Below, piece by piece: positions 19,141 through 20,909 of a DNA stretch of 64,000 nucleotides. The notes under the pieces were generated by a model. That model searched no databases. It was not told where the DNA came from and worked only from the letters and a program-made list of their open reading frames with translations. The stretch is from a phage. The number at the start of each line of letters is the position of its first letter. Positions within the stretch are counted from its first letter, which is position 1. Where the stretch lies: assembly GCA_014161675.1 (NCBI GenBank), contig GCA_014161675.1_4760.1, one strand, 5' to 3'. Position numbers and translations under genes: made by a program.

Positions 19141-20909
19141 TGATTGAACAATTAAACATCCACGAGATCCCACATGTTGACGGTGTACCAAGCGAAGGAC
19201 AGCACCGTATTAACTGGATCAAGAATGGCGAATGTTTAAGCGCAGCAACGACACAGACTGGCAATGACGGGACGCTTAACCGCGCCCCGGTTGCAATTCA
19301 AGAAAACGTTGCACGCGTAAACGAAAACGCAAAATCAACCGTCGCTAAAGTTAACGAGGTTGTAACGGCGGTTAACGATATTAAAACAACTTTAGGGGTA
19401 ATTTCTGACGGAAGTATCATTGATGTGGTTAACCAGACTGTCGCAAAAGTTGAATCCGTCGAAGATAACTTAGGAGAAACAGCAAGAACTCTACAAACAA
19501 CGGTAGACGCTGTATCAGAACTTAACATCAAGATTGGTGATCGCCCCGCTGCCGATCCTAGCACAAGAACAATCTATGATGACATTTCTTTCATCAAACA
19601 AGAAATGGGTTCTTATCCTAACTTTAATATCAATGGTTCCCCTGATGCTGGCAGTTCCGGTTCTGGCATCAAATACCGAGTTATTCAGAATACCGCAGCA
19701 TTAAATGACCACGGTCGCCGAATCATTCAGCTTGAAAACGACTGGCAAGATTCTGACGTCGGCGAGTTAACAAAACAAGTTAACAAAATGCGCAGTGAGA
19801 TCGGCGACACGTCTCTTGCAACACAAGAAAATGTGTATGTTCGTCTCCGCACCAACGCAAGAAACATTGCTAACTTATCAAACGAAGTTCTAGAAGTCAA
19901 GAAAGCAATTTTGTTTGATTCAATCCCTGATATCGGGACTAAAGTCACTACGCTGGGAACTAATTATGAACGTCTAAACAATGATGTTAATGGTGTAGAT
20001 TCCGGTATTCGTCCTCGTCTTCTGGCTGTCGAGAATAAGATCGGAACGCCTCAATCGGCTGGAAGCATTGACTATCGATTAACCAACACAGAGCGAGAAT
20101 TTTTAGATCTTAAACAGGTTGTTGGTGTAAGCGGTGCTGACGGTTTGCGCGGTGAAGTTGTTCGACTTTCCAATGAGATTGGCACTGACAGCGATCGACA
20201 TACTCTAGCCGGACGTATTAAAGTTGTAGAAAACACTCAGGGTCGGTTAGAAGCAAGCGTACAGGACATGGAACAGATTGTAGGTGATCGCGAATCAGGT
20301 TTGACCGCTGGCGTTATTAAACTATCAAGTGATATCTATGGCGATGATGGTTCAGAAGATCCATTTACTCAGAAAGGCGTGATTAAAATCGTCAAAGAGC
20401 TACAAACATCTAACGGAAACAAAGTAGATGATGTACCTGATGACGGTTTCCATTATCTGCGTAAGCGCGGAGAATGGGTGCAAGTTGCATATGCTGCTGG
20501 AGCATTTAAAAATACCGCAGATATTACGGTTGAGCTGGACGAACAGGATGTTTATAAACCGATTCCGCTTAACGACATGGCGGAAGAAGTTAATGCGCGT
20601 CAAATGGTGAAAAGTGAATCTGTTATTACCGTTCAGGACAAAGGTTTATTCCGTTGTGTATTCCGTTGTGATGTACAAGCTCAACATAATGCAACATTCA
20701 TTGTTGCGATTTTCAAAAATGGACAGATGGTACATGAAGCGAAAAATGGTCATTACGGAACAGACGAATTGATCAGCTATTCTACCAGTGCTTTCCTAAA
20801 TATTGAAACGGGAGATCAGATTAACATCCGTATTAAGGGTGTATCTGCCGAAGCAGTAGCACAGCCAGTACAAATTAAAGAGTTCCTCTTTGGGATTTCT
20901 CCGGTATAA
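19140..20909 (+). CDS. wac: Fibritin (neck whiskers, wac) with extra C-terminal domain
   Basis: Long heptad coiled-coil region; foldon-like DGFHYLRKRGEWVQV (T4 foldon [13 protein letters not shown]) followed by ~137 additional residues. Confidence 0.8.
   Translation: MIEQLNIHEIPHVDGVPSEGQHRINWIKNGECLSAATTQTGNDGTLNRAPVAIQENVARVNENAKSTVAKVNEVVTAVNDIKTTLGVISDGSIIDVVNQTVAKVESVEDNLGETARTLQTTVDAVSELNIKIGDRPAADPSTRTIYDDISFIKQEMGSYPNFNINGSPDAGSSGSGIKYRVIQNTAALNDHGRRIIQLENDWQDSDVGELTKQVNKMRSEIGDTSLATQENVYVRLRTNARNIANLSNEVLEVKKAILFDSIPDIGTKVTTLGTNYERLNNDVNGVDSGIRPRLLAVENKIGTPQSAGSIDYRLTNTEREFLDLKQVVGVSGADGLRGEVVRLSNEIGTDSDRHTLAGRIKVVENTQGRLEASVQDMEQIVGDRESGLTAGVIKLSSDIYGDDGSEDPFTQKGVIKIVKELQTSNGNKVDDVPDDGFHYLRKRGEWVQVAYAAGAFKNTADITVELDEQDVYKPIPLNDMAEEVNARQMVKSESVITVQDKGLFRCVFRCDVQAQHNATFIVAIFKNGQMVHEAKNGHYGTDELISYSTSAFLNIETGDQINIRIKGVSAEAVAQPVQIKEFLFGISPV

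Follow-up and report, generated by a model that had tools for sequence, protein, structure and literature searches.

The 64,000-nucleotide (nt) stretch of phage DNA analyzed here (NCBI GenBank assembly GCA_014161675.1, contig GCA_014161675.1_4760.1; hereafter, the window) carries wac, the gene for the neck whisker protein fibritin, and raises the question of what is formed by the residues that follow the foldon of this fibritin and why they are there. A preliminary description of the same DNA had proposed that this extension bears a C1q/TNF-like signature and constitutes a trimeric head at the whisker tip, which might endow the whisker with a binding function. Our analyses indicate that the extension very probably has a C1q/TNF-like fold, and the explanation that we consider likely for the protein as a whole, with somewhat less confidence, is that of an RB49-type fibritin whose head serves as both folding nucleus and distal knob. 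The window is a block of structural genes from an RB49-like, T4-type coliphage of the genus Krischvirus, and its wac gene is organized as follows:

19140..20909, + strand: open reading frame (ORF) of wac (fibritin, neck whisker), 1770 nt and 589 amino acids (aa), with the stop codon at 20907-20909 (ORF list)
19140..19289, + strand: N-terminal collar/neck-attachment domain of ~50 aa, in strong alignment with the N-terminus of T4 fibritin
19290..20426, + strand: segmented coiled-coil shaft, aa 51-429, aligning over its full length with the T4 fibritin shaft
20427..20486, + strand: foldon-like beta-hairpin DDVPDDGFHYLRKRGEWVQV, aa 430-449, at the end of the Pfam Fibritin_C match and aligned by HMMER to the T4 foldon
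20487..20906, + strand: C-terminal domain of 140 aa, aa 450-589, a probable C1q/TNF-like jelly-roll head

The wac Product and Its Foldon Hairpin

The identity of the protein was apparent from each of the comparisons made. The wac DNA of the window is 98.8% identical (nt) to wac of phage RB49 and 99.7% identical to that of phages kaaroe and kvi, and its product matched the PHROG family 1056 'fibritin neck whisker' with an E-value of 2.3e-186. The PDB entry 2bsg (T4 fibritin) was matched over aa 6-427 (E 5.8e-50), and the matches to 2bsg and 3j2o together spanned aa 6-431 at an E-value of about 6e-50. The functional labels given above for the first two domains follow the fibritin literature, in which the N-terminal domain has the role of neck attachment and the shaft is a coiled coil (PMC3797505).

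The preliminary description was right to place a foldon-like segment in this protein. Pfam Fibritin_C (PF07921) aligned to aa 368-451 at profile positions 2-92 of 93 (E 1.6e-30) with a score of 105.5 bits against a cutoff of 21, so that the gathering score was passed with the foldon hairpin included, and HMMER aligned the T4 foldon to aa 425-449, within which DGFHYLRKRGEWVQV occupies aa 435-449. This resemblance is beyond chance, and because the Fibritin_C match reaches the last-but-one profile position, a T4-type foldon hairpin has been kept. Consistent with this, P433, Y439, R441, W446 and Q448 were invariant in 11 of the 11 wac proteins that were aligned across genera. The N-terminal domain, the segmented coiled coil and the foldon residues (P, DG, Y.RK.GEWV) of T4 fibritin all match the window protein, and the two differ in what comes after the hairpin. 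T4 fibritin, whose foldon of 27-30 residues nucleates trimerization alone, stops a few residues further on with the hydrophobic foldon tail LLSTFL, whereas the window protein has QVAYAAGAF instead, leading into a domain that runs on for 140 aa.

Extent and Distribution of the C-Terminal Domain

The extension beyond the foldon (hereafter, the tail) exists much as it was first described, and the three peptides that had been quoted from it (KGLFRCVFRCDVQAQ, FIVAIFKNGQMV and SAFLNIETGDQINIRIKG) were all found there. Its dimensions required revision: the tail comprises 140 aa, not ~137, and of the interval 20486-20909 that had been assigned to it, position 20486 completes the V449 codon, which moves the start to 20487, and 20907-20909 is the stop codon.

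A tail of this kind might be an artifact of annotation or sequencing, in which a separate downstream gene has been fused to wac by a frameshift, and two database proteins of 110 aa (P0001 and P0002) that begin at Met480, inside the tail, could be taken to favor such an origin. Both of these derive from metagenome scaffolds in which the gene call was broken by stretches of N immediately upstream. Moreover, the wac reading frame was uninterrupted in 58 of 58 Krischvirus records, which represent independent phage genomes, the product had a length of 589 aa in all five relatives fetched, there was neither a stop nor a start signal at the wac/tail junction, and a terminator-like hairpin comes after the stop codon at the end of the tail. 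The fused layout is also kept in the wac proteins of other genera at 22-41% identity. The merged-gene reading is ruled out by these comparative data, and we regard its probability as practically nil.

The layout shared with those more distant proteins consists of a foldon-like hairpin (P..Y.R...W.Q) and, after AAG, a tail of ~140 aa, and it was observed in the metagenomic protein P0004, the Serratia phages 92A1, WSPA and 4S, the Muldoonvirus phages PS2 and Muldoon, and the Cronobacter phage VP8. A tblastn search of 50,697 phage records with the window tail recovered the 58 Krischvirus records and no others (74-99% identity), and use of the 92A1 tail as the query added eight further Serratia/Cronobacter records, with all of the matches in wac. 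In an exhaustive HMMER search of 1.84 billion representatives, nothing was identified beyond the cluster of the protein itself, a single distant wac (P0004) and a repeat protein that is a spurious match, and word-indexed protein searches with the tail and with the tail alignment returned only the two 110-aa fragments, which are N-gap artifacts. Based on the tblastn and HMMER results, the tail module is a narrow sequence family that is limited to the fibritin of one Straboviridae clade.

Evidence for a C1q/TNF-like Fold

Among 24,736 Pfam models, the two best matches of the isolated tail were BclA_C (PF18573; E 6.6e-5, 23.2 bits, spanning residues 8-126 of the tail and positions 4-115 of the 128-position profile) and C1q (PF00386; E 0.019, 15.6 bits), and there was no match to TNF (PF00229). 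We take BclA_C and C1q to belong to a single C1q/TNF Pfam clan, and consistent with a shared clan, many metazoan C1q proteins are labeled with both families. A Pfam scan of five sequences, comprising four Krischvirus variants and P0004, detected BclA_C in four of them and C1q in three.

A profile-profile comparison was made by running HHalign locally against a gC1q alignment of adiponectin/CTRP domains. The six-sequence tail profile matched with a probability of 95.0% (P 3.7e-8, score 50.9), while 100 column-shuffled controls averaged 12.1 and never exceeded 18.5, and a score of 14.4 was obtained with the reversed profile. An 11-sequence multi-genus profile gave a probability of 91.6% (P 8.3e-7; shuffled maximum 22.6), and the members from outside Krischvirus matched when used alone, with P-values of 2.5e-5 and 1e-4. 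In both of the main runs FIVAIFKNG (the 'KNG' motif) was paired with VKVSLFKKD, and FLNIETGDQINIRIKG (the 'L.I..GD.I' motif) with LLHLEVGDQVWLQVYG, in the same register. The signature that had been read from the sequence by eye is therefore upheld insofar as its motifs lie inside the segment that the gC1q profile aligns, but not at the level of the Pfam cutoffs, since the profile searches yielded sub-threshold matches for BclA_C and C1q and none for TNF.

Structure prediction led in the same direction. The AlphaFold2 (AF2) model of the tail had a mean predicted local distance difference test (pLDDT) score of 63.5, with seven strands in residues 41-140 (pLDDT 64-84), where the C1q/TNF jelly-roll has ten in two five-stranded sheets, and its closest structures were TNF ligands, C1q heads, cerebellin, BclA and phage fiber tips. 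A Foldseek search of the PDB with this model matched C1QL2 with an E-value of 5e-5 and cerebellin with a template modeling (TM) score of 0.54, and nearly all chains in the resulting list were of the C1q/TNF type, together with a few matches to phage lambda gpJ-type central tail fibers. In BFVD, 'C1q domain' and collagen-repeat proteins of phages and giant viruses were numerous among the matches. One of the BFVD matches, A0A1J0MHA5 from the T4-like Klebsiella phage KPV15, is a small stand-alone protein of 159 aa that matches the wac head well in structure, with TM scores of 0.57/0.50.

Several results weigh against the assignment. Neither Pfam match attained its gathering score (23.2 versus 38 bits for BclA_C and 15.6 versus 23.7 bits for C1q), and because these thresholds were missed, formal membership in the C1q/TNF family is not established. 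The divergent tails of P0004 and 92A1 had no Pfam match on their own, PDB sequence searches, for which the complete protein and two profiles served as queries, recovered fibritin/foldon chains and no C1q/TNF chain, and the register of the first motif, GLFRC, was unstable between the HHalign runs (it was aligned to GKFHC in one and to GLYYF in the other). The AF2 model was derived from a three-sequence alignment, has the mean pLDDT given above and leaves the first 40 residues unmodeled; a second model in which the foldon was included was worse (pLDDT 53.4) and was not used. In addition, generic jelly-rolls, such as carbohydrate-binding modules and capsid proteins, trailed the C1q/TNF matches by only about one Z unit.

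The sub-threshold Pfam scores, the divergent tails without a match, the lack of C1q/TNF chains among the PDB sequence matches and the shifting first motif are all points in favor of a generic beta-sandwich that has converged on the jelly-roll shape, unrelated to C1q, TNF or BclA and resembling their motifs by chance. We nevertheless judge convergence of this kind to be quite improbable, given that the two top matches out of 24,736 Pfam models fall in one clan, that the HHalign scores of 44-51 far exceed the shuffled maxima of 18.5-22.6, that the members from other genera provide an independent signal, and that, apart from the few lambda gpJ-type exceptions, the Foldseek list of PDB chains is made up of C1q/TNF proteins. 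A C1q/TNF-like fold for the tail is thus the assignment that we hold with good confidence.

Proposed Function of the Head

Eight types of fibritin C-terminal module have been distinguished, of which the RB49 type is one (Letarov and Krisch 2013, PMC3797505). According to the same source, only the fibritins of T4 and JS98 fold with foldon motifs alone and that of RB49 requires its expanded C-terminal domain, the RB49 fibritin is reported to be trimeric, and the C-terminal part of the T4 whisker touches the long tail fiber near its knee (PMC3797505). The gC1q/NC1 and BclA heads, for their part, nucleate trimeric collagenous stalks (e.g., PMC8211825).

These precedents suggest the following scheme. 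In the RB49-type fibritin, the N-terminus would anchor a trimeric coiled-coil whisker to the neck, and the C-terminus comprises a T4-like foldon hairpin followed directly by a probable beta-sandwich of ~137-140 residues of the C1q/TNF (BclA-like) kind. In the C1q/TNF superfamily the domain forms homotrimers with three-fold symmetry whose N- and C-termini lie at the base, and a trimeric head is expected here from the trimeric coiled coil of the stalk and from the reported trimeric state of RB49 fibritin (PMC3797505). The three copies of the domain probably pack around the fiber axis to form a compact structure. A first task of the head would be to act as a nucleus for C-terminal trimerization and registration, from which the coiled coil could zip up, a role that gC1q/NC1 heads play in collagens VIII/X, C1q and BclA. 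As a second task it may provide the distal knob of the whisker, onto which the long tail fiber might dock. We favor this combination of folding nucleus and distal knob because of the gC1q/NC1/BclA and Sf6/HS1 precedents (the latter are considered below) and the folding requirement of RB49 fibritin.

One consequence of docking was open to comparison, as a covariance between the fibritin tip and the fiber protein gp36 has been proposed (Letarov), and this idea was examined within Krischvirus at the level of whole proteins. The wac tail allele did not covary with the gp36 allele in the genus, which counts against the scheme. Phage JK32 had values of 99.8% for gp36 and 80% for the wac tail, ECD7 had 99.8% for gp36 and 76% for the tail core, and kvi showed the opposite, with 99.3% for the tail and 92.9% for gp36. 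The comparison lends no support to a contact between the tail and gp36. A search with the C-terminal half of gp36 produced a diffuse distribution. In Serratia phage 92A1 a related tail occurs together with a full-length gp36 of the RB49 type (33% identity), a pairing that shared ancestry explains equally well.

Two side observations concern gp36 itself. The RB49 protein (L006 25157-26647) is 496 aa long, presumably much longer than gp36 of T4, and full-length matches to its C-terminal half were confined to about 74 phage records. Some short motifs of that half recur in the L-shaped and long tail fibers of T5-like and Klebsiella phages.

An alternative role for the head is that of an accessory adhesin or lectin-like sensor that binds a host-surface glycan or an environmental ligand, beyond any part in tail-fiber assembly and retraction. 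Several of the structural neighbors of the model are receptor-binding tips, a TNF-like domain acts in receptor recognition in Pam3 gp24 (PMC9608196), the tip of the Sf6/HS1 needle is a TNF-like knob (PMC3741392), and Letarov and Krisch have speculated that the C-termini of non-T4 fibritins are accessory adhesins (PMC3797505). Furthermore, k-mers that predict specificity for the lipopolysaccharide core are located in gp12 and in the fibritin gene as well (bioRxiv 10.64898/2026.04.02.716166), although linkage to gp12 could explain the latter.

The pattern of sequence variation speaks against an adhesin. Between Krischvirus alleles, the ratio of nonsynonymous to synonymous substitution (dN/dS) in the tail was 0.07-0.2, the substitutions were scattered over the strands and the N-terminal linker with no clustering in loops, and the loop segment NGHYG.D.LISYSTSAFLNIE.GD hardly varied across the genus. 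Identity between these alleles is 75-81% in the tail and 74-77% in the shaft; in the N-terminal domain of ~50 aa it is 82-100%. The tail is under purifying selection and is not hypervariable, unlike the pattern of host-range tips. The host range of RB49-like phages also maps to gp38, with selected host-range mutants changed in gp38 only (PMC9569957), and no ligand-binding motif was identified in the head. Based on these findings, we consider the adhesin unlikely. Still less likely, in our estimation, is that the head is a ligand-sensing module (for a host-envelope glycan, an ion or a small ligand) that controls whether the long tail fibers are held up or released; were this so, the environmental sensor mechanism of RB49-like phages would differ from that of T4.

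Comparison with Known Systems

The RB49-type expanded C-terminal module was reportedly described already by Letarov et al. in 2005, and RB49 gpwac is essentially the same protein as that of the window, given the nt identity noted above, the length of 589 aa and the same gene position. The C-terminal moiety of the RB49 type has been called alien or without relation to T4, its origin being unknown (PMC3797505, PMC9569957). What is added here to the descriptions of the RB49 type is the retained foldon hairpin and the assignment of a C1q/TNF-like fold. We found no statement of a retained foldon in RB49-type fibritin in the literature searched, and none linking a natural fibritin C-terminus to C1q/TNF, in a search that was incomplete and does not prove absence.

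Identity between the wac head and the gC1q/NC1 domains (C1q, adiponectin, cerebellin, collagens VIII/X) or BclA of the Bacillus exosporium was 15-21%. The C1q family proper has a collagen-like Gly-X-Y stalk, whereas wac of the window has an alpha-helical coiled coil plus foldon and no Gly-X-Y repeat, and neither a Ca2+ site nor a C1q-type ligand site was identified in its head.

TNF/C1q-like knobs on trimeric phage fibers are a known theme. The tail-needle knob of Sf6/HS1, in P22-like phages, is likewise an alternative TNF-like jelly-roll tip on a trimeric coiled-coil fiber, and it has seven beta-strands (PMC3741392), compared to the seven confident strands of the wac tail model; the needle and fibritin alike have tip modules that differ from one phage lineage to another. 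The needle is, however, a different protein (gp26, at the tail tip) with a role in plugging and delivering DNA, and no sequence relationship between it and wac was detected. The tips of the short tail fibers of cyanophages A-1(L)/A4 and the TNF-like domain of Pam3 gp24 belong to host-binding baseplate fibers (PMC9608196), in contrast to the wac head, which is part of the neck whiskers and bears no mark of diversifying selection.

The extension itself had been described before, and assigning a fold to it is a modest step, in the nature of a useful annotation refinement, that leaves the general view of T4-like virion architecture unchanged. The result provides a structural label for one member of the "alien" C-terminal modules of fibritin, for which catalogs dating back to 2005 give no fold, and shows that in the RB49-like lineage the module was added behind a retained foldon and not in its place. 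This raises the questions of why the foldon does not suffice here and which structure is touched by the tip of the whisker in RB49-like phages, a group of interest to phage therapy. The foldon plus C1q-like head could also serve as an alternative natural C-terminal trimerization tag.

Allelic Exchange and Genomic Context

The neighbors of wac and the other features referred to in this section are the following:

17740-19140: gp12 (short tail fiber) ORF, upstream neighbor of wac (ORF list)
20956-21888: gp13 (neck protein) ORF, downstream neighbor of wac (ORF list)
20916..20944, + strand: terminator-like hairpin and T-tract after the wac stop codon, with the hairpin at 20916-20936 (8-pair stem, 5 G-C pairs) followed by the T-run
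20564..20570, + strand: crossover point of ECD7, aa 475-477, equal to 2578-2584 of L002 (ECD7)
21888-22700: window equivalent of the homing-endonuclease insertions in relatives (L001 4720-5420; L002 3969-4553; L003 3956-4771)

The placement gp12-wac-gp13 matches the gene order known for fibritin, and annotated relatives have the same arrangement. The preliminary description had asked whether the tail is a swapped module. The wac gene of ECD7 is a clean single-crossover recombinant, with 366 informative sites of the window type upstream of the crossover and then 70 of the JSE type, from which we conclude that allelic exchange occurs within the domain by homologous recombination; this is not a swap of unrelated modules. 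Adjoining the ECD7 crossover, at wac aa ~460-475, two independent metagenome scaffolds have N-gaps (L007 3829-3928 and L008 444-453), which may be due to co-existing alleles that disrupted assembly.

Together, gp12 and wac (window 17740-20909; loci L001-L005) form deeply diverged allelic islands in Krischvirus, with 59-85% nt identity. Synonymous divergence (dS) in wac is near saturation between the Krischvirus alleles, and identity in the neighboring gp13 is 95-100% throughout. Because JK32 pairs a window-type gp12 with a third type of wac, the junction of gp12 and wac is a boundary of the allelic islands. Homing-endonuclease genes are polymorphic around gp13/gp14 in the relatives ECD7 (segC), MIZ4 and JSE, and there is no such gene in the gp13-gp15 interval of the window. 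These endonucleases might drive the co-conversion of nearby markers, such as the 3' end of wac, and gp13 is too conserved for a conversion tract to be traced through it.

In the record of phage Skers (L015, MW748999.1, 11722-13405), gp8 abuts the large terminase gene, and gp9 to gp16, including wac, are missing. The record is ~10 kb shorter than those of relatives, and the gap is probably an assembly artifact rather than a viable deletion.

Terminator-like sites numbered four, compared to 0.2 expected from shuffled sequences. The strong terminator-like hairpin between wac and gp13 is also present in the divergent metagenomic scaffold L008.
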